Part shown: one piece after another, positions 1 to 38,467 of the stretch
How positions within the stretch are numbered: position 1 is the stretch's first letter
How the letters are laid out: the number at the start of each line of letters is the position of its first letter
Source of the DNA: a virus
Lineage: Duplodnaviria; Heunggongvirae; Uroviricota; Caudoviricetes
Strand: one strand, 5' to 3'
DNA: 38,467 bases
Virus record (IMG/VR): IMGVR_UViG_2850796239_000007
Location: 1 to 38,467 of that record
The notes under the pieces: model-generated
The model's database searches: none
Told to the model about the DNA's origin: nothing
The model's input: only the letters and a program-made list of their open reading frames with translations
Program-made: the position numbers and the translations under genes

Positions 1-342
1 ATGATGAAAAAAAGTATTCTGGCGTTTCTGTTACTCACCAGTTCTGCAGCGGCGCTGGCTGCACCGCAGGTGATTACCGTCAGTCGTTTTGAAGTGGGTA
101 AAGACAAATGGGCATTTAACCGCGAAGAGGTGATGCTGACTTGCCGACCGGGTAATGCTTTGTATGTTATTAATCCGAGTACCCTCGTGCAGTATCCTTT
201 AAACGATATCGCACAAAAGGAAGTTGCCAGTGGGAAGACCAATACCCAACCCATTTCGGTGATTCAGATTGATGATCCTAACAATCCCGGCGAAAAAATG
301 AGTCTGGCACCGTTTATAGAACGAGCTGAAAAACTCTGTTAA
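1..342 (+). CDS. small secreted protein, DUF1161/YnfD-like; host-side flank of prophage
   Basis: 113-aa ORF with N-terminal signal peptide ([22 protein letters not shown]); family assignment is from memory, not searched. Confidence 0.6.
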
Positions 343-569
343 TTACCTAAAATAGCCTTTTGATTTCCAATAAAAAAAACGCCTCAGTTCTTTCACCAGA
401 ACGGGCGGTTTTTAACATTTAAGCTGATGACCACCGCGCTTTTTATTGACCATTTTGCACGCAAACTGGAAAACCTGGCGTCGTCATCTATTCTTAAAGG
501 GCAAGGCAACTAAGCCTGCATTAATGCCAACTTTTAGCGCACGGCTCTCTCCCAAGAGCCATTTCCCTG

Positions 570-603
570 GACCGAATACAGGAATCGTATTCGGTCTTTT
601 TTT
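570..603 (+). terminator. Rho-independent terminator-like hairpin
   Basis: GACCGAATA ... TATTCGGTC inverted repeat followed by T7 run. Confidence 0.45.
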
Positions 604-637
604 AATTGCATTTGAAATCAATTAGTTACAAATGCTT

Positions 638-657
638 CCCCGAAATTCCCCGAAATT
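638..657. repeat. tandem 10-bp direct repeat CCCCGAAATT x2 in putative attL arm
   Basis: two perfect adjacent copies about 80 bp from int stop. Confidence 0.5.
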
Positions 658-734
658 TACTCGAATTTCTGTATTCCGGTCTTTTTTGGTTATATCACAA
701 CCAAAATACATTTAACAATCCATTTACGTTAAAA

Positions 735-1811
735 TCAGAGCAGTAAGTACGTTTTTTCTCTCTCATCAAGATACATTTTTGTTGTCTTCTCCGATGTGTG
801 GCCAAGTAGACGCTGAGCAAATTCTTCTCCACATATTTCTTTGTACAATCGTCCAGCCAGGCTTCTGATTTCGTGAAAAGTTGGTGGGTTTTCACTGAAC
901 AGGATACCTGTTAATTTTCTGGCTGCGACAAATTTCTTTGTCAGGCCGTCCGGGTGAATGCTGCCGTCAGGGCTGTTTTTTCTAATCCCGGCACTGATTA
1001 GATAATCCCCCCTACTTACCATGCGGCACTGTTTAACTACTGCACCAAGTCGTAAACCAGCGACAGGAAGGCTGAGTGACAGGGGGATAGCAATCATCAT
1101 TCCTGTCTTAATTTGCCTGATGTGGAGACGATCATCATAAATATCACTGAACCGCATATTCGTTATGTCTTCGCGACGTTGTCCTGTTACAAGGGCTAAG
1201 TCCATAGCTAATGGGAACCATGCCGGAAGTTGATCTGCTGCCTCCCTGATGCAGTTGTATGTCTTTAGTTTCAGCCGTTCTCTTGTAACTACTATTTTCG
1301 GTGCTCTTGTTGGCGTTACTGGATTTTGAGATATACGTCCTTCAACAATGGCTTCGCGGAACATATCAGATAACACAGAACGCATTGATCCTGCCATCGT
1401 GTTTTTCCCTCCTTCAATCCACAAATCAAGAAACTCGGCGATATGGCGAGTGGTTATTTCTGTCAGTAAAACCCCTCCTAATTTTTCTTTTATTGTCTCC
1501 AGTTGATTTACCCGAGTTTTATAAGTATTTCTGGACGCTTTTCTCCTTATAAGAATCGTTTTGTAACGTTCAATCCAGTCTGCCATAGTAAATGAGTCGA
1601 CCCCTTTAAGCTTTTCAATTAGGGCAGCAGGAGAGTAGTTTTTGTATATATAATGATTTGCTTCAATTGCCTGCGCTACTGCATCTCTTCTTGAAATTTT
1701 ACCTAGTGTAAATTCTTCTTTCGTCAGAGGGTTGCGCCAGTAATATGCTTTGTCTCTCCTTCGATATGTTAAGTTTCTAGGCAAATTGGGATCGTATTTT
1801 TTCCGCTGCAT
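735..1811 (-). CDS. int: lambda-type tyrosine integrase
   Basis: 358 aa; lambda Int-like C-terminal catalytic motifs ([15 protein letters not shown], terminal Tyr region); ATG start. Confidence 0.9.
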
Positions 1812-2064
1812 GTTTTAACTTCTCCATTAACGGACTGTCTCTCCCTTGTCGCCCATTAGGCTGATGGTGTGTTATATCGGTATCAACCTTATTTGGGTTG
1901 ATATAGAAAGCCTCCGGAACCACCCTGTAACTCCTCCCGTGTAGTTCAGGTGCAGGATAAATGTTTCCATTCCTTGCCCATCGTCTCAGCGTTGATATTG
2001 ATGGTGGGGTATCCGGATATCTGAGTTTTCCCCACGTTTTGAGTGTCACAAGATTCATTGCCAT
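1777..2064 (-). CDS. xis: excisionase (Xis-like)
   Basis: motif TLRRWARNGNIYPAPELHGRSYRV resembles lambda Xis; overlaps int start; track ORF begins at GTG 2073, ATG at 2064 preferred. Confidence 0.7.
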   Translation of the reverse strand: MAMNLVTLKTWGKLRYPDTPPSISTLRRWARNGNIYPAPELHGRSYRVVPEAFYINPNKVDTDITHHQPNGRQGRDSPLMEKLKHAAEKIRSQFA

Positions 2065-2164
2065 ACCTCTCACGATATGACCGCCAGTAAATATACAGAA
2101 TACTGGCGGGTGTGGTTGATTTTTAATAATCAGCTATGAAGTTCTAATCTGGATATAATGAAAT

Positions 2165-2353
2165 TCACGAGGACTGAAGTTTCTCGCAATTAAAATTTAT
2201 CAGTTTTACTTTCTGCTCTCTGGAAACGCCTGCTTCTTTTTCCCCTGAGAGCATTTTTTCGCATTCTGATTTCGTTAGTTTTGTCTTTGAGTATCTTGTC
2301 CAGCTGGCAGGAGAACCACCTTCCTTTTCAATAGTGGCTGTAATTTTATACAT
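2165..2353 (-). CDS. hypothetical phage protein (62 aa)
   Basis: ATG with GGAGG SD 5 nt upstream; track ORF extended to 2386. Confidence 0.5.
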   Translation of the reverse strand: MYKITATIEKEGGSPASWTRYSKTKLTKSECEKMLSGEKEAGVSREQKVKLINFNCEKLQSS

Positions 2354-2392
2354 GAACACCTCCATTAATATTTTCCCAAAATGCACTTGGTT

Positions 2393-2683
2393 TTACACCG
2401 GAATATTCTCATCGTATCCTGCTTGTTGCGTTTCGTTTTGTGTTTGTGGATCCGGGAATGCATATTCAACGCCTTCCAGTTCAATCCATAGTGCATTACG
2501 ACCAGCTTTGATTGTCGGCCAGTCCATACCTTTGATTCTTTCCCATGAGCGGGAGGTGAATGTTTTTTCCAGCAAATCAGCTTTTGCGCGTTTGGCGTCG
2601 TTACTGGTGCCCCCATGGTGCTTGTTGAGCAACTCGATAATTTCATCAAGTGCGATTTCTTTTGCACGCTTTTCTTTTAGCCA
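2393..2683 (-). pseudogene. 3' portion of early-region gene cut by IS600
   Basis: reading frame open from the IS600 boundary (2683) down to stop at 2393; no ATG start of its own (track start is TTG). Confidence 0.4.
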
Positions 2684-2747
2684 TGAGGTAGCCTGAGTTT
2701 AACGGACACTCCTTCCTGAAATAGAATGGCATCGGAAGGAGCTAATA

Positions 2748-3050
2748 ATGAGCAGAAAAACCCAACGTTACTCTAAAGAGTTCAAAGCCGAAGCTGTCAG
2801 AACGGTTCTTGAAAATCAACTTTCGATCAGTGAAGGCGCTTCCCGATTATCCCTTCCTGAAGGCACTTTAGGACAATGGGTTACCGCCGCCAGAAAAGGG
2901 CTCGGTACTCCTGGTTCCCGCACGGTGGCTGAACTGGAATCTGAAATTCTGCAACTGCGTAAGGCGTTAAATGAAGCTCGCCTTGAGCGAGATATATTAA
3001 AAAAAGCAACAGCGTATTTTGCACAGGAGTCGCTGAAAAATATGCGTTAA
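2748..3050 (+). CDS. IS600 OrfA (HTH transposase subunit)
   Basis: 100 aa; A-rich slippery run near 2998-3004 for OrfAB -1 frameshift. Confidence 0.9.
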   Translation: MSRKTQRYSKEFKAEAVRTVLENQLSISEGASRLSLPEGTLGQWVTAARKGLGTPGSRTVAELESEILQLRKALNEARLERDILKKATAYFAQESLKNMR

Positions 3051-3085
3051 TCGAACAATGGCGACAACAATTTCCCATTGAAGCG

Positions 3086-3904
3086 ATGTGTCAGGTATTT
3101 GGTGTATCCAGGAGCGGTTATTACAACTGGGTACAGCATGAACCCTCAGACAGAAAACAAAGTGATGAGCGGCTAAAACTGGAGATTAAGGTGGCACATA
3201 TCCGCACTCGCGAAACATATGGAACCCGGCGGCTCCAGACGGAGCTGGCAGAGAATGGCATCATCGTTGGTCGTGACCGACTGGCACGTCTTCGTAAGGA
3301 GCTAAGGCTACGCTGTAAGCAGAAACGCAAGTTCAGAGCGACTACGAACCCGAACCACAATCTGCCAGTTGCGCCAAATCTGCTGAACCAGACGTTCGCT
3401 CCTACAGCACCAAATCAGGTCTGGGTGGCGGACCTGACGTATGTTGCCACACAGGAGGGATGGTTGTACCTCGCTGGCATCAAAGATGTTTATACGTGCG
3501 AAATTGTCGGCTACGCCATGGGAGAGCGCATGACAAAAGAGCTGACAGGTAAAGCCCTGTTTATGGCGCTCAGGAGCCAGCGCCCACCTGCCGGGCTAAT
3601 CCACCACTCTGATCGAGGTTCACAGTACTGCGCATACGATTACCGGGTCATACAGGAGCAGTTTGGTCTGAAAACATCAATGTCGCGTAAAGGTAACTGT
3701 TACGACAACGCTCCGATGGAAAGCTTCTGGGGAACGCTGAAAAATGAGAGCCTGAGCCACTATCGTTTTAATAACCGGGATGAAGCCATCTCAGTAATAC
3801 GGGAATACATTGAGATTTTCTACAATCGTCAGCGTCGTCACTCTCGTCTGGGGAATATCTCCCCGGCAGCCTTCAGGGAAAAATATCATCAGATGGCTGC
3901 TTAA
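3086..3904 (+). CDS. IS600 OrfB (DDE transposase catalytic part)
   Basis: 272 aa; -1 frame relative to OrfA. Confidence 0.9.
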   Translation: MCQVFGVSRSGYYNWVQHEPSDRKQSDERLKLEIKVAHIRTRETYGTRRLQTELAENGIIVGRDRLARLRKELRLRCKQKRKFRATTNPNHNLPVAPNLLNQTFAPTAPNQVWVADLTYVATQEGWLYLAGIKDVYTCEIVGYAMGERMTKELTGKALFMALRSQRPPAGLIHHSDRGSQYCAYDYRVIQEQFGLKTSMSRKGNCYDNAPMESFWGTLKNESLSHYRFNNRDEAISVIREYIEIFYNRQRRHSRLGNISPAAFREKYHQMAA

Positions 3905-3947
3905 AAAAAGAACAAATGGTAGTGTCCGCTATTGCCAGTACACCTCA

Positions 3948-4082
3948 AGCACCACGGGAGATGGCAATGGATAATTTTTTCGCTTTAGCCCAGTAAAAAC
4001 CGCCTTTAATACCGAGGCGTTTTCTTACTTTGTCATTTTTTGCTTCGTAATACAGTGGGTAAACTTGTTTATCGGTGCTCAT
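3948..4082 (-). pseudogene. 5' portion (45 codons) of a gene truncated by IS600
   Basis: ATG at 4082 with GAGGT SD; ORF runs into IS600 right end; same codon phase as fragment 2393..2683. Confidence 0.35.
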
Positions 4083-4105
4083 TGTTTTTTAACCTCAACT
4101 CATAT

Positions 4106-4402
4106 TCAGATTGCATAAAAGAAACGAACTGATGATGCGATATGAGAGAGTTCTTTCAGTCGTTGATAACTGATACCGTATTTCTTGTCAGCCTCTTCAA
4201 TGCGAGCTGTGAGTAATGCAATTTCTTTAATGGCACATACACAACAATCAAATGTTCTCAGAACGTAACCGCCATCAATAATTACCGTGACGTTTTCTTT
4301 TTGGGAAATCTGAATGAAACTATGTAATGTATTCCCACATTTAAATTCGGCGAGAGAATCGTTAATAACATTAAGTTCAATTTCACATTCAATAATACTC
4401 AT
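4106..4402 (-). CDS. hypothetical phage protein (98 aa)
   Basis: ATG with AAGGA SD; AT-rich; in operon downstream of Rha gene. Confidence 0.5.
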   Translation of the reverse strand: MSIIECEIELNVINDSLAEFKCGNTLHSFIQISQKENVTVIIDGGYVLRTFDCCVCAIKEIALLTARIEEADKKYGISYQRLKELSHIASSVRFFYAI

Positions 4403-4476
4403 TGCTGTTTCCTTTTTTAAGGTTGAGTGAATCCCTGCCATTGCTGGCATAAATTCAGTTTCGAATATTCAGTTAA

Positions 4477-4758
4477 TTAAAGTTCGTGTGCCATCTGGTC
4501 TTTTTCGGCACAGATTTCACTACAATATTTGCGTTTCTTTTTCCTCATCATGGTTCCGTGCATGTAAATAAGTTCAGCAGTGTAAGCCTTATCAGGGCTT
4601 ACTTGTCTGTCACACAGGCCATAAGCACAGGGAATTAAATCGGGATCACCTTTCTGCTGGAGGGTTTTTTTGATTATCCATAACAATTTTTTGATTCCGG
4701 TGTGTGTTATGGTCTGCTGAGGTGCAGAGGTAAAACAATAATCAAGCATAGGGTTCAT
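4477..4758 (-). CDS. hypothetical protein with two CxxxxC pairs (possible zinc ribbon)
   Basis: 93 aa; ATG with GGAGC SD; motifs CAYGLC and CSEIC. Confidence 0.5.
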   Translation of the reverse strand: MNPMLDYCFTSAPQQTITHTGIKKLLWIIKKTLQQKGDPDLIPCAYGLCDRQVSPDKAYTAELIYMHGTMMRKKKRKYCSEICAEKDQMAHEL

Positions 4759-4774
4759 ATCCGTAGCTCCATTT

Positions 4775-5323
4775 TTATTTTAAAGAAAGTAATTGTTCCA
4801 CAGTCATATTTTTAATTGCGCCCCGGTTAACAAGAGTCCATCCCTGTTTTTCCAGATAAAACCGGAAAGTCTCCAGGGTACAGACCAGTGCGCCATCAGG
4901 AACGGTTTCGGTGAATTCGACATTGCCGAATTTGTCGAAGTGAACAACCAGAGTGCGACCATCTCCCGGAATCATCTTGTCAGCAGGTGGGGTGTTATTC
5001 TGGCGCAGTTCGGCCTCCATGCGGTCTAACTCAGCAATGTAGGCTTCCTTGAATGCGGCGGCTTTTTTGCCAGTGAAGCCCATCACCAGGAAAACGAAGC
5101 CGTTTTTGGTGATTTGGTACATTGGGAGTTTGCGCCCGGTTGAGTCGGTGTATTCGCTCGCCTCAAAATTGAGGGCAGTAAATTTATCTGAGCATTCAAT
5201 ATTTGCGATGGCACGTAACACATTGTCGTGTCGTTTGTGGAAGAACTCTGCAACCGCAACAGACGTAGTGACAGCGCGACCGTTTTCTACGGTTACACAA
5301 GGGTGAGAAAGGGTAGTAGCCAT
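4775..5323 (-). CDS. Rha-family phage regulatory protein (antirepressor-like)
   Basis: motif AVTTSVAVAEFFHKRHDNVLRAIANIEC typical of Rha domain; start set at ATG 5323 (MATTL) because the promoter of the leader module lies inside the longer track ORF. Confidence 0.75.
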   Translation of the reverse strand: MATTLSHPCVTVENGRAVTTSVAVAEFFHKRHDNVLRAIANIECSDKFTALNFEASEYTDSTGRKLPMYQITKNGFVFLVMGFTGKKAAAFKEAYIAELDRMEAELRQNNTPPADKMIPGDGRTLVVHFDKFGNVEFTETVPDGALVCTLETFRFYLEKQGWTLVNRGAIKNMTVEQLLSLK

Positions 5324-5486
5324 GATGGCAGCCTCCGCGATGAATTTGATTAACTCACCACCGGAGGTAGCAATCTCATGGGTGGTGAGACGTACAGGGT
5401 TGCTACAACCGGTCATCACGGAACCCGGCCAGTCTTGCGACTGCCCCGCACGCCCCACCATAATTTGAATGTGGCTGTGCATTACG
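5324..5486 (-). promoter_or_regulatory. structured 5' leader of Rha gene (GNRA hairpin, target site, RBS-proximal hairpin)
   Basis: paralogous to leaders at 7736..7897 and 11849..12009; hairpin CAGTC-GCAA-GACTG at 5430..5443 (minus). Confidence 0.5.
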
Positions 5487-5556
5487 CATAAAAAAACCGC
5501 CTGAGCGCGGTTATGCGCCGTGAATGACTTCGGGGTAGCAATCCCGGCACCCGTTT
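5487..5556 (-). ncRNA. candidate short terminated RNA (c4/IsrK-like) upstream of Rha gene
   Basis: promoter TTGAAA-17-TATAGT (plus coords 5563..5601), two hairpins, intrinsic terminator AACCGCGCTCAGGCGGTT + U7 (5487..5514). Confidence 0.4.
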
Positions 5557-6012
5557 TATGAGGTGCAGGTGCACTATAATTCCACCCGTTCTGGTTTTCA
5601 ATAGCTACATTCAACATTTTCTCTTTCCTTTCATCACCGAAGTGAACTTTGTTGATGCGGTGCCTGGTGCCTCCAGGTGACGTTAACCAGTTAACAATTA
5701 ACGCCGGAATAAGGGATTTTCCTTACTGTTTTAACTGTTCCGCGTGCGCTGAGCCGCATTCACCGCATCACAAAATTCACTTTAAAAAGGGCGGACATCA
5801 GCCAGCAATTAAACCGATGCCGCCAACTGGTACTTCACACAGCAATGTCGTTATTTACAACCGGAGGCGCACTCCCACCATTTAAATTTAACAGACAAGA
5901 CCGACTCTTTATGGATACCGGAAATGCGCCTTCGTGTTGTGCCCGGTTTTATTTCACCACCTCCGGGCTTTGGTGGTATCTTTACTGAAGTTCTCGCACA
6001 ACCAGTAAGGAA

Positions 6013-6102
6013 ATGAATATGCCAACGTATCTCGCCAGAGTAGAACTATATAATGCTGAGCCAGAGGATTACGAAGGGCTTCATAAATATATGCTCTCAC
6101 TA
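6013..6102 (+). pseudogene. 5' part of small gene interrupted by IS5-family element
   Basis: joins in frame with 7021..7170 when IS and one TA copy are removed (80-aa ORF). Confidence 0.45.
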
Positions 6103-6162
6103 GGCTGTGTCCCTTAATCATCTGAGCTATAGTAACTGTCTGTTTACACAACATATTGAACT

Positions 6163-6612
6163 ATGGCTCGCTACGACCTTCCCGATGAGGCATGGACCAT
6201 CATCAAGCCCCTGTTACCTCCTGAACCCGCCACACCACGGGCCGGACGCCCATGGGCTGAGCACCGTAAAATCATCAATGGCATGTTCTGGGTGTTATGT
6301 TCCGGTGCACCATGGCGCGATTTACCCGAACGATATGGGTCATGGAAAACTGTTTATAACCGCTTTAACCGATGGTCAAAGTCAGGCGTGATTAATATTA
6401 TTTTCAACAGGTTGCTTTCGCTACTTGATGCAAACGGCTTTATTGACTGGTCTGCCACCGCGCTGGATGGCAGTAATATCCGGGCGCTGAAATGTGCCGC
6501 CGGTGCTCAAAAAAACATCCCGATATCGACGGAGATAATGGGCTGGGTCGCTCTCGCGGCGGTTTTGGCACCAAAATCCATCTGGCAACAGACGGAAGTG
6601 GCCTCCCGTTAA
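6163..6612 (+). CDS. IS5-family transposase OrfA
   Basis: 149 aa, MARYDLPDEAWTIIKPLLPP...; contains A AAA AAC slippery heptamer at about 6511..6517. Confidence 0.8.
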   Translation: MARYDLPDEAWTIIKPLLPPEPATPRAGRPWAEHRKIINGMFWVLCSGAPWRDLPERYGSWKTVYNRFNRWSKSGVINIIFNRLLSLLDANGFIDWSATALDGSNIRALKCAAGAQKNIPISTEIMGWVALAAVLAPKSIWQQTEVASR

Positions 6613-7007
6613 ATATCGTGCTAAGCCCCGGACAAGCTCATGAAAGCCAGTTCGCGCAACGACTTCTGGACGGGATTGGCGTTCAGCGTCAGAACGGCAG
6701 CATGAAACGCCGTGGACATGCGGTACTGGCTGATAAAGCGTATTCAGGGCGCGCATTGCGCAACGAGCTGAAAAATAACGGTATAAAGGCAGTAATCCCC
6801 CGAAAGTCAAATGAGAAAATGGCATCGGATGGACGTGCACAGCTTGATCGTGATGCGTACCGCAATCGTAATGTCGTTGAACGGTGCTTTGGGCGGCTGA
6901 AAGAATATCGCCGCATCGCCACGCGTTACGACAAAACGGCGAGAAATTACCTGGCGATGGTGAAACTGGGCTGCATCCGACTCTTTTATCAACGCTTACG
7001 TAATTAA
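6492..7007 (+). CDS. IS5-family transposase OrfB (DDE domain), -1 frame
   Basis: 171 aa in -1 frame overlapping OrfA. Confidence 0.8.
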   Translation: MCRRCSKKHPDIDGDNGLGRSRGGFGTKIHLATDGSGLPLNIVLSPGQAHESQFAQRLLDGIGVQRQNGSMKRRGHAVLADKAYSGRALRNELKNNGIKAVIPRKSNEKMASDGRAQLDRDAYRNRNVVERCFGRLKEYRRIATRYDKTARNYLAMVKLGCIRLFYQRLRN

Positions 7008-7020
7008 GGGACACAGCCTA

Positions 7021-7170
7021 GCATCCAGTAATCAGGTTAGCGAATTAACAATGTGGGTTAAACGACTGGTCAGTCAACTGAAAAAAGCTAAGCCTGACTG
7101 CAAATTACCGGAGAAGGCGATGGATTACCTGAAGCGAAATGGACTGATAAGCGTGGAGGATGTTTTACGA
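7021..7170 (+). pseudogene. 3' part of small gene interrupted by IS5-family copy 1
   Basis: in-frame continuation of 6013..6102. Confidence 0.45.
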
Positions 7171-7252
7171 TGACCTGGCCTGAAGCATTCACCACGGTAG
7201 GAATTGCAATGGCGGTGGCGCTGGTTGTGTATTCGATTTGCCGCTGGGGGTA
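7169..7252 (+). CDS. possible 27-aa hydrophobic peptide (MTWPEAFTTVGIAMAVALVVYSICRWG)
   Basis: ATGA overlap with upstream ORF stop; very short, unverified. Confidence 0.2.
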
Positions 7253-7259
7253 AGGTAAA

Positions 7260-7278
7260 CCAGCCCCGAACGGGCTGG
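7260..7278. terminator. hairpin CCAGCCC-(CGAAC)-GGGCTGG between convergent genes
   Basis: 7-bp GC-rich stem; U-rich on minus strand side. Confidence 0.4.
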
Positions 7279-7282
7279 TAAT

Positions 7283-7570
7283 TTAAAGAGGTAATTTGAT
7301 GATGGCTGTCAGTGCGCCAACAGCAACGACGAGCATGCCACCAAATCTGACGGTCAGTTGCAGGCTGAGTTTGTCTATTTTTGCATCAAGGGCTGCAATG
7401 TCGTTTTTTAGTTCAGTTCTGACATCATTTAGGTCGCGCTTTGTGGCGACTTCTGCGGCTTCGTGAGAATCTTTCACTGCGGCAGATATAGCGCGCGCCT
7501 GAGCTGCCGGCATTCCTGCGGCTTCCAAGGTTTCGACGAACTTCAGTGTATCAAAATAGACCTGAGCCAT
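7283..7570 (-). CDS. DUF1640-like coiled-coil protein with C-terminal TM helix
   Basis: 95 aa; ATG with AAGGAT SD; family recalled from prophage annotations. Confidence 0.55.
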   Translation of the reverse strand: MAQVYFDTLKFVETLEAAGMPAAQARAISAAVKDSHEAAEVATKRDLNDVRTELKNDIAALDAKIDKLSLQLTVRFGGMLVVAVGALTAIIKLPL

Positions 7571-7657
7571 GTTAAATCCTTCGTTGTTGGGGAATATTGT
7601 TAGTTTAGCCTGTAGTGGCTGTTGACGACAACGTTAATCCGGGGCTATATTCCTCAC

Positions 7658-7735
7658 GCGCCAGCAAAATCTGGCGTCGGGATTGGCGTCCCGGATGTTT
7701 ACGGAGCGATATGAGACGCGTCCGCGTCTTTTTTC
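7658..7735 (+). ncRNA. candidate short terminated RNA (c4/IsrK-like), copy upstream of ORF6N gene 1
   Basis: promoter TTGACG-18-TATATT (7622..7651); hairpins at 7659..7676 and 7677..7692; terminator 7714..7735. Confidence 0.4.
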
Positions 7736-7897
7736 ATATCGTTTGCACAGTCACATTCGCGATTTATGGCGGGCTGTGTGGGGGAGCCGAAAGGCTCGCC
7801 GGTTTCCGTACCCGGTTACGCCAACCCTGCACAGTTCGCCACCAGTTCGATTGGCGTCGTCGGTGGCGATAATTTCCAAATGTACGGAGTTATCGTT
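7736..7897 (+). promoter_or_regulatory. structured leader of ORF6N gene 1
   Basis: GNRA hairpin GAGCC-GAAA-GGCTC 7784..7797; ACGCCAAC site 7818..7825; hairpin TCGCCACC/GGTGGCGA 7846..7869. Confidence 0.5.
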
Positions 7898-8446
7898 ATG
7901 ACCACTCAAATCTCTGTTGAAACTCTCTCCCCGATCGCCCATAACCAGATACCTGTTATTACCACTGAACTTTTGGCGCAGTTGTACGGCACAGAAGCGA
8001 TTCGCATTCAGCAAAATCACGCCAGAAACGCTGAACGTTTTATTGAAGGTAAGCATTTTTATAAGTTAGTGGGCGATGAGCTTAGAGGTATGAAGCACAG
8101 ACTATCTTTAAGCGAGTCTGTGAAAATTGCCCGTAACGTTCGCTCCCTCATTCTCTGGACAGAACGCGGAGCAGCACGTCACGCCAAAATGCTCGAAACC
8201 GATCAGGCGTGGGAAGTATTCGAAAAATTGGAAGACTGCTACTTCAACCAGTACGAGAAAGATCGGGCTACGGGGAAAATGAACATCGATATTCACCTGG
8301 CGATCCGTGATGATAAAACTGCCTTCATCCGAAGTTATGCGCCTGGTCAGCTGGTGACGGTTGAAGAAGCCCTGATGTTGCTTAAATCGCGCGGATGGCT
8401 GGTAATGCCGCGAGATGAACTTGCCGGAAAATTAATGGAGCTTTAA
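7898..8446 (+). CDS. antirepressor-family protein, ORF6N-type N-terminal domain
   Basis: 182 aa from ATG 7898 (MTTQISVETL); paralog of 12010..12567; C-terminal motif shared with Rha protein. Confidence 0.6.
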   Translation: MTTQISVETLSPIAHNQIPVITTELLAQLYGTEAIRIQQNHARNAERFIEGKHFYKLVGDELRGMKHRLSLSESVKIARNVRSLILWTERGAARHAKMLETDQAWEVFEKLEDCYFNQYEKDRATGKMNIDIHLAIRDDKTAFIRSYAPGQLVTVEEALMLLKSRGWLVMPRDELAGKLMEL

Positions 8447-8460
8447 CTGGTTAAATTAGC

Positions 8461-8486
8461 CCCGATATGGGAATTCCCATATCGGG
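8461..8486. repeat. 26-bp perfect palindrome CCCGATATGGGAATTCCCATATCGGG
   Basis: 15 bp downstream of ORF6N gene 1 stop; not followed by a U-run. Confidence 0.5.
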
Positions 8487-8675
8487 AGAACATTACCACC
8501 GGGGATAAAATGATTTGCGGTGAAAGGGAAGTTAAGTAGAATTGCTGCGGGTGCTTGAGGCTATCTGTCTCAGGCATGAACACCAAAAGGCAGATGAGAA
8601 GCCCCAGTTAACATTACGCGTCCTGCAAGACGCTTAACATTAATCTGAGGCCAATTTCATGCTAGGCTGTGTCCC

Positions 8676-27961: not shown

Positions 27962-28021
27962 GGCTGTGTCCCTTAATCATCTGAGCTATAGTAACTGTCT
28001 GTTTACACAACATATTGAACT

Positions 28022-28471
28022 ATGGCTCGCTACGACCTTCCCGATGAGGCATGGACCATCATCAAGCCCCTGTTACCTCCTGAACCCGCCACACCACGGG
28101 CCGGACGCCCATGGGCTGAGCACCGTAAAATCATCAATGGCATGTTCTGGGTGTTATGTTCCGGTGCACCATGGCGCGATTTACCCGAACGATATGGGTC
28201 ATGGAAAACTGTTTATAACCGCTTTAACCGATGGTCAAAGTCAGGCGTGATTAATATTATTTTCAACAGGTTGCTTTCGCTACTTGATGCAAACGGCTTT
28301 ATTGACTGGTCTGCCACCGCGCTGGATGGCAGTAATATCCGGGCGCTGAAATGTGCCGCCGGTGCTCAAAAAAACATCCCGATATCGACGGAGATAATGG
28401 GCTGGGTCGCTCTCGCGGCGGTTTTGGCACCAAAATCCATCTGGCAACAGACGGAAGTGGCCTCCCGTTAA
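28022..28471 (+). CDS. IS5-family transposase OrfA (copy 3)
   Basis: identical 149-aa product. Confidence 0.8.
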   Translation: MARYDLPDEAWTIIKPLLPPEPATPRAGRPWAEHRKIINGMFWVLCSGAPWRDLPERYGSWKTVYNRFNRWSKSGVINIIFNRLLSLLDANGFIDWSATALDGSNIRALKCAAGAQKNIPISTEIMGWVALAAVLAPKSIWQQTEVASR

Positions 28472-28758
28472 ATATCGTGCTAAGCCCCGGACAAGCTCAT
28501 GAAAGCCAGTTCGCGCAACGACTTCTGGACGGGATTGGCGTTCAGCGTCAGAACGGCAGCATGAAACGCCGTGGACATGCGGTACTGGCTGATAAAGCGT
28601 ATTCAGGGCGCGCATTGCGCAACGAGCTGAAAAATAACGGTATAAAGGCAGTAATCCCCGAAAGTCAAATGAGAAAATGGCATCGGATGGACGTGCACAG
28701 CTTGATCGTGATGCGTACCGCAATCGTAATGTCGTTGAACGGTGCTTTGGGCGGCTGA
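28351..28758 (+). pseudogene. IS5-family transposase OrfB, frameshifted in copy 3
   Basis: CCCCC to CCCC at about 28654 changes reading frame. Confidence 0.6.
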
Positions 28759-28878
28759 AAGAATATCGCCGCATCGCCACGCGTTACGACAAAACGGCGA
28801 GAAATTACCTGGCGATGGTGAAACTGGGCTGCATCCGACTCTTTTATCAACGCTTACGTAATTAAGGGACACAGCCTA

Positions 28879-32639: not shown

Positions 32640-34597
<1,958 letters not shown>

Positions 34598-34943
34598 GGA
34601 TGATATTGATGAACTAAAAATTCAGCTTAAGGAACTGAACCAGAAGCGCACAGAGCTACAGACCACGATTGATAGCATGAGGCGTAAGGCTTCACTCACT
34701 GATAAGGAACTACCCCAGCTTAAAGATATTGACCTGACAACTAAAGCGGGTCGTGTCGAGTGTCAATTAATTTTGTCCAAACATCTGGAATCCCTGACAC
34801 TGGGTAGAGGGCAAGTGACGGTTAAGTTGAGTAATGGGACTGAAATCATAGTTCCTACAGACCCATTACCATTAACTGACGGAGCTGCAATCTTTGAAAT
34901 TGCTGAGAAAAATCTTTTGAATATTGACACTTTCCAACTGTAG
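34598..34943 (+). pseudogene. 3' fragment of unknown gene (reads out of IS600 end)
   Basis: ORF 34566..34943 uses ATG inside the IS600 end; 115 host-derived codons. Confidence 0.3.
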
Positions 34944-35409: not shown

Positions 35410-35500
35410 TAGACTGGCCCCCTGAATCTCCAGACAACCAGTATCACTTAAATAAGTGATAGTCTTAATACTAGTTTTTAGACTAGTCATTGGAGTACAG

Positions 35501-35866
35501 ATGATTGATGTCTTAGGGCCGGAGAAACGCAGACGGCGTACCACACAGGAAAAGATCGCAATTGTTCAGCAGAGCTTTGAACCGGGGATGACGGTCTCCC
35601 TCGTTGCCCGGCAACATGGTGTAGCAGCCAGCCAGTTATTTCTCTGGCGTAAGCAATACCAGGAAGGAAGTCTTACTGCTGTGGCCGCCGGAGAACAGGT
35701 TGTTCCTGCCTCTGAACTTGCTGCCGCCATGAAGCAGATTAAAGAACTCCAGCGCCTGCTCGGCAAGAAAACGATGGAAAATGAACTCCTCAAAGAAGCC
35801 GTTGAATATGGACGGGCAAAAAAGTGGATAGCGCACGCGCCCTTATTGCCCGGGGATGGGGAGTAA
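35501..35866 (+). CDS. insC: IS2 OrfA
   Basis: [24 protein letters not shown]... Confidence 0.9.
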
Positions 35867-36729
35867 GCTTAGTCAGCCGTTGTCTCCGGGTGTCGCGTGC
35901 GCAGTTGCACGTCATTCTCAGACGAACCGATGACTGGATGGATGGCCGCCGCAGTCGTCACACTGATGATACGGATGTGCTTCTCCGTATACACCATGTT
36001 ATCGGAGAGCTGCCCACGTATGGTTATCGTCGGGTATGGGCGCTGCTTCGCAGACAGGCAGAACTTGATGGTATGCCTGCGATCAATGCCAAACATGTTT
36101 ACCGGATCATGCGCCAGAATGCGCTGTTGCTTGAGCGAAAACCTGCTGTACCGCCATCGAAACGGGCACATACAGGCAGAGTGGCCGTGAAAGAAAGCAA
36201 TCAGCGATGGTGCTCTGACGGGTTCGAGTTCTGCTGTGATAACGGAGAGAGACTGCGTGTCACGTTCGCGCTGGACTGCTGTGATCGTGAGGCACTGCAC
36301 TGGGCGGTGACTACCGGCGGCTTCAACAGTGAAACAGTACAGGACGTCATGCTGGGAGCGGTGGAACGCCGCTTCGGCAACGATCTTCCGTCGTCTCCAG
36401 TGGAGTGGCTGACGGATAATGGTTCATGCTACCGGGCTAATGAAACACGCCAGTTCGCCCGGATGTTGGGACTTGAACCGAAGAACACGGCGGTGCGGAG
36501 TCCGGAGAGTAACGGAATAGCAGAGAGCTTCGTGAAAACGATAAAGCGTGACTACATCAGTATCATGCCCAAACCAGACGGGTTAACGGCAGCAAAGAAC
36601 CTTGCAGAGGCGTTCGAGCATTATAACGAATGGCATCCGCATAGTGCGCTGGGTTATCGCTCGCCACGGGAATATCTGCGGCAGCGGGCTTGTAATGGGT
36701 TAAGTGATAACAGATGTCTGGAAATATAG
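35824..36729 (+). CDS. insD: IS2 OrfB transposase
   Basis: 301 aa DDE transposase overlapping insC. Confidence 0.9.
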
Positions 36730-36740
36730 GGGCAAATCCA

Positions 36741-37087: not shown

Positions 37088-37290
37088 TTATTCCTCTGGG
37101 TAAGCTGAGCTAATCAAGGTATCTTCCTGCATACGATTAATATGAGATGTGGTTCTTTCATCAATAACCTTTCCATCAAGTACCGTCTGAGTTGTGATAT
37201 TGATTGTCTGAGGCTGAATATTTACTGACGGCTTGATAACCTTTAAATCTTGTGTGAATGTTTCCACTCGACCTTTCAGATTATTTAATG
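37088..37290 (-). pseudogene. 3' fragment of unknown gene W, interrupted by IS911
   Basis: frame open from the IS911 boundary to stop 3 nt upstream of gene X start. Confidence 0.35.
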
Positions 37291-37298
37291 TGAAGTGG

Positions 37299-38467
<1,169 letters not shown>

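Follow-up and report, generated by a model that had tools for sequence, protein, structure and literature searches.

A single ISSfl7-type insertion sequence in a Shigella boydii prophage probably marks a deletion that joined two unrelated genes

Is an insertion sequence (IS) that is flanked by matching dinucleotides, and whose removal opens a reading frame, necessarily a simple insertion into a former gene? The question is raised by a stretch of 38,467 nucleotides (hereafter the window) from virus record IMGVR_UViG_2850796239_000007. At 6103..7018 on the plus strand it holds a 916-bp element, copy 1, with TA on both sides (6101-6102 and 7019-7020), so that CTA precedes the element and TAG follows it; 6013..6102 joined to 7021..7173 makes an open frame of 80 codons. 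A sequence-only reading had taken this for a clean, hence recent, insertion into a small gene. We find that the flanks map to two genes and that none of 4401 E. coli genomes holds the joined site, and we put a probability of about 0.8 on the conclusion that the ISSfl7-type copy at 6103..7018 is not a simple insertion and marks a prophage deletion of about 5 kb that took the repressor and replication genes.

Judged by its sequence, the element is an already catalogued Shigella/EIEC insertion sequence of the ISSfl7 type, of the IS5 family and with an IS427-like organisation. Its left terminal inverted repeat, GGCTGTGTCCCTTAAT (6103..6118, plus strand), is a perfect 16/16 complement of the right one, ATTAAGGGACACAGCC as read directly (7003..7018, plus strand), and the ends proposed by the sequence-only reading thus stand. 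The 916-bp boundaries were set by the three copies in the window together with complete TA-flanked copies in E. coli (locus L006) and Brenneria (L016). Copy 2 (8665..9580, minus strand) is identical to copy 1. Copy 3 (27962..28876, plus strand) has 915 bp, and the three differ only by one C deleted in copy 3 (C5 to C4), a deletion that breaks orfB ahead of the catalytic Glu. The flanks are CTA/TAG for copies 1 and 2 and CTA/TAA for copy 3, so the earlier placing of all three copies in CTAG or CTAA targets was correct.

Outside the window, E. coli CFSAN029787 and FDAARGOS_943 have elements that match copy 1 at 100% identity, and a few E. coli/EIEC genomes, one of them at up to 36 places, contain copies with 99.9-100% identity across the full 916 bp. 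The NCBI annotation pipeline PGAP labels a 99.9% identical copy as an IS5-like element ISSfl7 family transposase with programmed frameshift, and its coding sequence corresponds exactly to 6163..7007; the name ISSfl7 as used here rests on this label (PGAP follows ISfinder). An ISSfl7 copy has been reported inside fimD of a S. boydii serotype 7 strain (PMC4374849). A scan of genome contigs with the left end of the IS gave matches in Brenneria only, because Shigella has no separate representation in those contigs; the Brenneria relative is 82% identical overall.

The left part of the joined frame, 6013..6102 on the plus strand, is the 5' fragment (codons 1-30) of a Rac-prophage gene encoding 96-98 aa, here called gene A, cut at an in-frame CTA followed by G. 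The 30 codons are identical to the start of the gene A protein, which reads MNMPTYLARVELYNAEPEDYEGLHKYMLSL followed by GFRRTIPHGDG...AKTR. Gene A is intact, with the empty site CTCACTAGGATTC, at two E. coli loci (L001 and L002) and four Shigella loci (L026-L029), and it continues past the IS point as TAGGATTCAGGAGAACG. The homology of the window DNA to the two E. coli loci goes no further than 6104. Another apparent case of intact gene A (L023) was rejected, being a short, window-identical contig that ends within the IS.

The right part, 7019..7173 on the plus strand, is the 3' fragment (the last ~50-51 codons and the stop) of a nin-region gene, gene B, whose intact product has 113 aa. The C-terminal 51 residues of one intact gene B protein (P0001, 113 aa; ...GKADNLL followed by ASSNQVSELTMWVKRL...VLR) are 100% identical to the window. 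Its intact site, found in P0001 and the corresponding locus L019, is ...AACCTACTAGCATCC and reads ...CTACTAGCATCC, with the 5' part of the gene running up to the IS point as ...GCCGACAACCTACTA. The L019 DNA is 100% identical to window 7018/7019..7696, and the 642 nt that precede this stretch have no counterpart in the window. Many nin-region proteins have the C-terminal module of gene B in common, with varied N-termini, and some of them are annotated as ead/Ea22-like.

Compared in this way, the 80-codon frame is a chimera of two unrelated genes: gene A matches phrog_8894 over its full length (E = 3.8e-38), gene B matches another PHROG family, phrog_660 (E = 3.3e-36), and homology to each parent stops exactly at an IS end, the junction being gene A codon 30 against gene B codon 62. 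The sequence-only reading was right that the frame is open once the IS is removed, but what is restored is not a pre-existing gene. The fused frame is open because gene A and gene B each carry an in-frame CTA followed by G (a Leu codon, then a codon starting with G). The odds of such an open frame by chance are 1 in 3 for the frame itself, after which ten more stop-free codons suffice before the ATG at 7051.

The earlier interpretation had staked itself on finding the uninterrupted 80-residue frame in relatives, and none was found: not one of the 151 protein matches to the chimera bears both halves. Matches that cover 86-99% of it turned out to be full-length relatives of gene B aligned across unrelated N-termini, and none of them holds MNMPTYLARVELYNAEPEDYEGLHKYMLSL; the high-coverage proteins P0001, P0005 and P0019 have the C-terminal module and the residues ASSNQ in common with the chimera and nothing more. 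Searches of Pfam and NCBIfam with the chimera, gene A and gene B gave no family, and the PHROG families of the two genes are of unknown function only.

A simple insertion should leave both flanks contiguous in an uninterrupted homologous site, and such sites were sought for all three copies. For copy 1 the query was the reconstructed site of 803 nt, searched against E. coli genomes, with coverage of at least 80% counted as joined. None of the 4401 partly matching E. coli genomes reached this coverage (0/4401), each match covering either the left half or the right half, and with the IS and both its flanks as the query no genome was found to contain either junction. Some E. coli matches (query 30-411) run 8 bases past the junction; these were discounted as chance identity at 6 of 8 positions, GGATTCAG in gene A against GCATCCAG in gene B, after the shared CTAG.

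The other two copies served as controls. The contiguous empty site of copy 2, whose insertion point lies in codons 2-3 of the mok/hok reading frame, was recovered in 194 E. coli genomes as one uninterrupted match of 98% coverage, and also in FDAARGOS_943 (L004). The empty site of copy 3, in a 146-aa phage gene (phrog_6356), was recovered in 85 E. coli genomes with 100% coverage and 99.7% identity. Copies 2 and 3 are thus simple insertions with TA duplicated, in CTAG and CTAA respectively; the method works, and copy 1 is the exception. The TA flanks of copy 1 are uninformative about its origin, since TA adjoins every copy examined: the 12 left ends in Brenneria, the two complete copies from outside the window and those within it. 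Of the clean TA duplication claimed earlier, the TA on both sides is real, but the two TAs derive from two different sites.

What separates gene A from gene B in relatives is the immunity and replication modules. Gene A lies there between rha/kilR and a DUF1391-repressor-cro-ydaT block. In FDAARGOS_943, rha is followed by gene A, DUF1391, HTH repressor, Cro/CI, YdaT, an O-like gene, ydaV, DUF977 and a 118-aa gene, and the series continues with QueH, hokD, a 95-aa gene, DUF1367, DUF1364 and DUF1133. The four Shigella loci read rha, gene A, a 67-aa gene, DUF1391, repressor, cro, ydaT, and in S. dysenteriae CP027027 (L020) ydaV, DUF977 and the 118-aa gene are followed by DUF7167, a 58-aa gene and then gene B. 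A tblastn search of the 38-kb window found none of DUF1391, repressor, cro, ydaT, O-like gene, ydaV, DUF977, the 118-aa gene, DUF7167, the 58-aa gene or the 5' part of gene B. The same search did find hok, the 95-aa gene, DUF1367, DUF1364 and DUF1133. The missing stretch amounts to about 4.3 kb in FDAARGOS_943 (counted from the CTAG in gene A through the 118-aa gene) plus 0.7 kb in CP027027, that is about 5 kb, a figure that is a composite estimate from two loci differing by mosaic segments and not a measurement. With flanks from two genes and the modules between them missing, copy 1 is best read as the mark of an IS-associated deletion of about 5 kb.

Two routes could have produced such a junction. 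Two copies in the same orientation, one in the CTAG of gene A and one in that of gene B, could have undergone homologous recombination; alternatively, an element at one of these sites could have transposed within the same molecule into the second CTAG, generating an adjacent deletion; cointegrate formation by IS1248, a member of the IS427 group, makes this plausible (PMC3281130). Either route would leave TA on each side, and the data fit both equally; no strain with the two-copy intermediate was found. An inversion between copies 1 and 2, which are inverted and 1.6 kb apart, was ruled out, since window 7041..11565 is collinear and co-oriented with a lambdoid nin region. Swapping the copy 2 flank onto copy 1 also speaks against inversion, as it yields a 31-codon stub and not gene A.

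The IS copies that recombined could instead have lain in two prophages or at distant loci, the outcome being an inversion, a translocation or a large deletion and the window a hybrid of two prophages. This we consider unlikely. The lineage is rich in this IS, as the related strain with up to 36 places illustrates, and several Rac-like or lambdoid prophages occur in Shigella genomes: a Rac-type copy lies at ttcA (in L026 and L027), and the window prophage adjoins ryeA/ryeB. Identity to FDAARGOS_943 is also uneven, about 92-93% to the left of the IS and 97-99% for parts of the right, but such differences between modules are normal lambdoid mosaicism. Moreover, order and orientation fit a single prophage with an internal deletion: int, early-left genes, the gap, nin, a Q-like gene, tRNAs, lysis, terminase and portal. 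There is no reciprocal junction within the 38-kb window, and an exchange between prophages requires more assumptions than an internal deletion.

A recent simple insertion into a pre-existing 80-codon gene, with TA duplicated and the gene restored by precise removal, is far less probable still. The open joined frame and the TA on either side are what it predicts, and at copies 2 and 3 the element has inserted in exactly this way. Against it stand the 0/151 proteins spanning both halves and the absence of the joined site from the E. coli genomes, the assignment of the halves to different full-length genes of different PHROG families, the break in homology to each gene exactly at an IS end, and the location of gene A and gene B in different modules in relatives. 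That the halves were first joined without the IS, through a deletion or mosaic recombination of phages, and that the IS later inserted precisely at the junction, is equally improbable. The mosaicism of lambdoid phages and the interchangeable N-termini of gene B homologs speak for it, but it demands an insertion exactly at an existing breakpoint, whereas both parent genes independently carry CTAG at the break, as an IS-driven event predicts, and the window contains few CTAG sites, 15 where base composition predicts ~150.

The transposase of the element is encoded in two overlapping frames. The orfA gene (6163..6612, plus strand; 149 aa), as identified from the list of open reading frames and Pfam, encodes an N-terminal DUF4096 domain as well as the predicted first catalytic Asp (D102, within ALDGS). 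The OrfB frame (6492..7007) is -1 relative to OrfA, and the overlap holds an A7 run; the part of orfB that would enter an OrfAB fusion of 281 aa in total is 6516..7007 on the plus strand. The fusion scores 320.4 bits against NCBIfam NF033580 (transpos_IS5_3), with a cutoff of 110, and covers profile positions 2-257 of 258; Pfam finds DUF4096 at residues 6-80 (E = 9.6e-30, 103 bits) and DDE_Tnp_1 at fusion residues 99-271 (78 bits). The IS5-family assignment made in the sequence-only reading is thereby borne out. The Y-(2)-R-(3)-E-(6)-K signature of IS4/IS5 transposases is present as Y233-R236-E240-K247 in YRNRNVVERCFGRLK. By this motif, D102, D191 (in LADKAY) and E240 would make up the catalytic triad. 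D102 lies upstream of the proposed shift site and D191, E240 and the signature lie downstream of it, and therefore the full predicted triad exists in the fusion only.

The proposed site of a -1 shift into orfB is the slippery heptamer A AAA AAC in the orfA frame, at 6510..6516 on the plus strand; it falls there because the A7 run (6509..6515) reads CAA AAA AAC in the OrfA frame. The earlier claim of this motif in the OrfA/OrfB overlap was accurate apart from its position, about 6511..6517, which is one base off. The motif and its flanks (GGTGCTCAAAAAAACATCCCGATATC) are unchanged in the Brenneria copy. Relatives in E. coli that are 90% identical have an A6 or A8-like run in place of A7; the A6 copy, which would need a +1/-2 shift, is still called intact by PGAP, and the A8-like copy is pseudogenised. 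RNA 3' of the slippery site folds like shuffled sequences (z = -0.53), with no significant structure. In E. coli, A AAA AAC is a weaker shifter than A AAA AAG. With the motif kept in Brenneria, the run A6 or A8-like in E. coli and a structure absent, we rate the proposed -1 frameshift from OrfA to OrfAB, a conventional route, as plausible.

Drawing on knowledge of the family and on the sequence, the element might work as follows. OrfA made alone would comprise the DUF4096 N-terminal domain and the first catalytic Asp, and a rare -1 shift at A AAA AAC would join it to OrfB to give the 281-aa DDE transposase. The shift could be ribosomal or could come from RNA polymerase adding an extra A in the A7 run, and the sequence data fit both. 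The transposase would then target the TA of YTAR (mostly CTAG), duplicating TA. If slippage by RNA polymerase were the main route, A7 and A6 could both stay functional; that the fusion is made mainly in this way on the homopolymer, with both run lengths functional and run length acting as a heritable switch of the transposition rate, is a speculative idea to which we assign little weight.

The window is one decayed Rac-like/lambdoid prophage in Shigella boydii. Positions 1..15617 are 100% identical to CP026875.1 (S. boydii), and the Rha protein exactly matches that of Shigella boydii ATCC 9905. The left junction is present in three assemblies and the right junction in partial proteins from two draft assemblies; with CP026875.1, ATCC 9905 and the two draft assemblies as the places where it is seen, the junction is specific to a S. 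boydii lineage. From left to right the window holds an integrase by ryeA/ryeB, RalA, rha, the deletion junction, the nin region, four tRNAs, lysis genes, a TrkH-family gene, and terminase and portal genes. Its IS load consists of IS600, IS2, an IS110-family element present twice and the three ISSfl7-type copies. It is because of the copy 1 junction that the prophage is without repressor, cro and replication genes. We infer that, shorn of its immunity and replication modules, it is locked in place as a remnant; it is probably non-inducible, yet keeps cargo such as the TrkH/TrkG-type transporter gene.

For biology at large these results mean little, the element being catalogued and IS-driven decay of Shigella prophages being of a well-known kind. 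What can be carried over to other loci is a caution: for IS families with a fixed dinucleotide target, matching duplications and a reopened frame do not prove a simple insertion, and an empty site in relatives is needed.

Among known systems, the element compares most directly with the IS427 group (for example IS1248, ISPpa2 and ISPaes1), whose members duplicate 2 bp of the target, have a pair of overlapping ORFs that include a frameshift motif, and complete the DDE triad in the fusion only (PMC3281130). The window element is likewise organised in each of these respects, and its terminal inverted repeats are likewise short and begin with GG. The group has elements of ~800-1000 bp with short inverted repeats; the window element has 916 bp and 16-bp perfect repeats, somewhat longer than the 832-865-bp Paracoccus members, the grouping being by organisation. 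The 2-bp duplication is displayed by copies 2 and 3, for which E. coli empty sites hold a single TA where the window has TA-IS-TA; copy 1, with TAs from two different sites, does not display it.

The IS630 family has the same target, CTAG with TA duplicated, but its transposase is unrelated (Pfam DDE_3 as against DDE_Tnp_1/DUF4096), is encoded in one long ORF and belongs to a larger element. The TA of gene B that borders copy 1 is taken up in S. dysenteriae CP027027 by an IS630-family element (DDE_3), so that the single CTAG of this gene has been struck independently by two unrelated IS families. There are hints here that the scarcity of CTAG funnels insertions into few prophage sites. From ISSfl7 the window element cannot be distinguished: the E. 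coli/EIEC copies are 99.9-100% identical to it, and the host group is likewise Shigella boydii.

IS-mediated deletion and prophage decay are well documented in Shigella. The present case likewise shows a single IS with flanks from two genes and the intervening DNA gone, here in a prophage that carries at least five IS types; the junction itself, gene A codon 30 against gene B codon 62, is particular to the S. boydii lineage.

In S. dysenteriae CP027027.1 (locus L020), gene B, the nin-region gene whose 3' fragment lies to the right of the ISSfl7-type copy 1 in the window, is intact on its 5' side and is interrupted by an IS630-family element encoding a 343-aa DDE_3 transposase. The relevant stretches (L020 6860-6890 and 8030-8045) match window position 7019-7020, and the insertion point is the identical TA within the identical CTAG (...AACCTACTA|AATAGCTGCG...CAGCTATT|TAGCATCC). 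Therefore, two unrelated CTAG-targeting IS families struck one site independently. The tetranucleotide is rare in the window, where it was found 15 times versus about 150 expected from base composition.

The homopolymer at the proposed frameshift site of the ISSfl7-type element (window 6509-6515) differs in length among IS lineages. An A7 run is present in both the Shigella and Brenneria copies. Two E. coli relatives, each about 90-91% identical to the window element, carry other lengths: L025 has an A6 run and is still labeled 'programmed frameshift' by PGAP, its CDS length implying a +1 rather than a -1 shift, and L024, a pseudogene interrupted by an internal stop, has an A8-like run. Many copies of a relative 82% identical to the Shigella IS were observed in genomes of the plant-associated Brenneria sp. 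L3-3Z and B. alni (L007-L018), mostly at contig ends; the first 30 bases of this relative are those of the Shigella element.

Copy 3 has a C4 run (28656-28660) where copies 1 and 2 have C5 (6797-6801), which shifts the orfB frame ahead of the catalytic Glu. Because of this shift, copy 3 cannot by itself encode an active transposase. Copy 2 (8665-9580; flanks 8640-8664 and 9581-9800) lies just upstream of hok, within codons 2-3 of the mok frame (ATG CTA GAC), and splits the mok/hok coding portion off from the leader and promoter that precede it, which probably silences the hok toxin locus.

Additional IS copies or fragments, namely IS600 (IS3 family), IS2, two identical copies of an IS110-family element, and two repeats of about 570 bp in inverted orientation, were located at 2683-3947, 13755-15210, 23488-24942, 33780-34606, 35410-36740, and 37290-37858. 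When the three ISSfl7-type copies are counted as well, much of the 38-kb window consists of IS DNA. A TrkH-family potassium transporter gene (16511-17986, + strand), similar to trkG of Rac, follows the lysis genes, and the RalA antitoxin sRNA (2169-2347, + strand) is encoded close to the integrase. Directly beyond the integrase end are two chromosomal sRNAs, SraC/RyeA and SdsR/RyeB (463-607), and their position puts the prophage at the ryeA/ryeB-yebY locus.

Three copies of the isrK / c4-a1b1 / C4 antisense RNA module were detected with Rfam above the gathering score, at 5378-5566 (- strand), 7645-7846 (+ strand), and 11760-11958 (+ strand), and they explain repeats D5-D8 and I6 of the repeat scan. 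Each is upstream of a Rha/Ash or ORF6N (antirepressor-like) gene. It is unusual for a single prophage remnant to carry three P1/P7-type C4 immunity-like modules.
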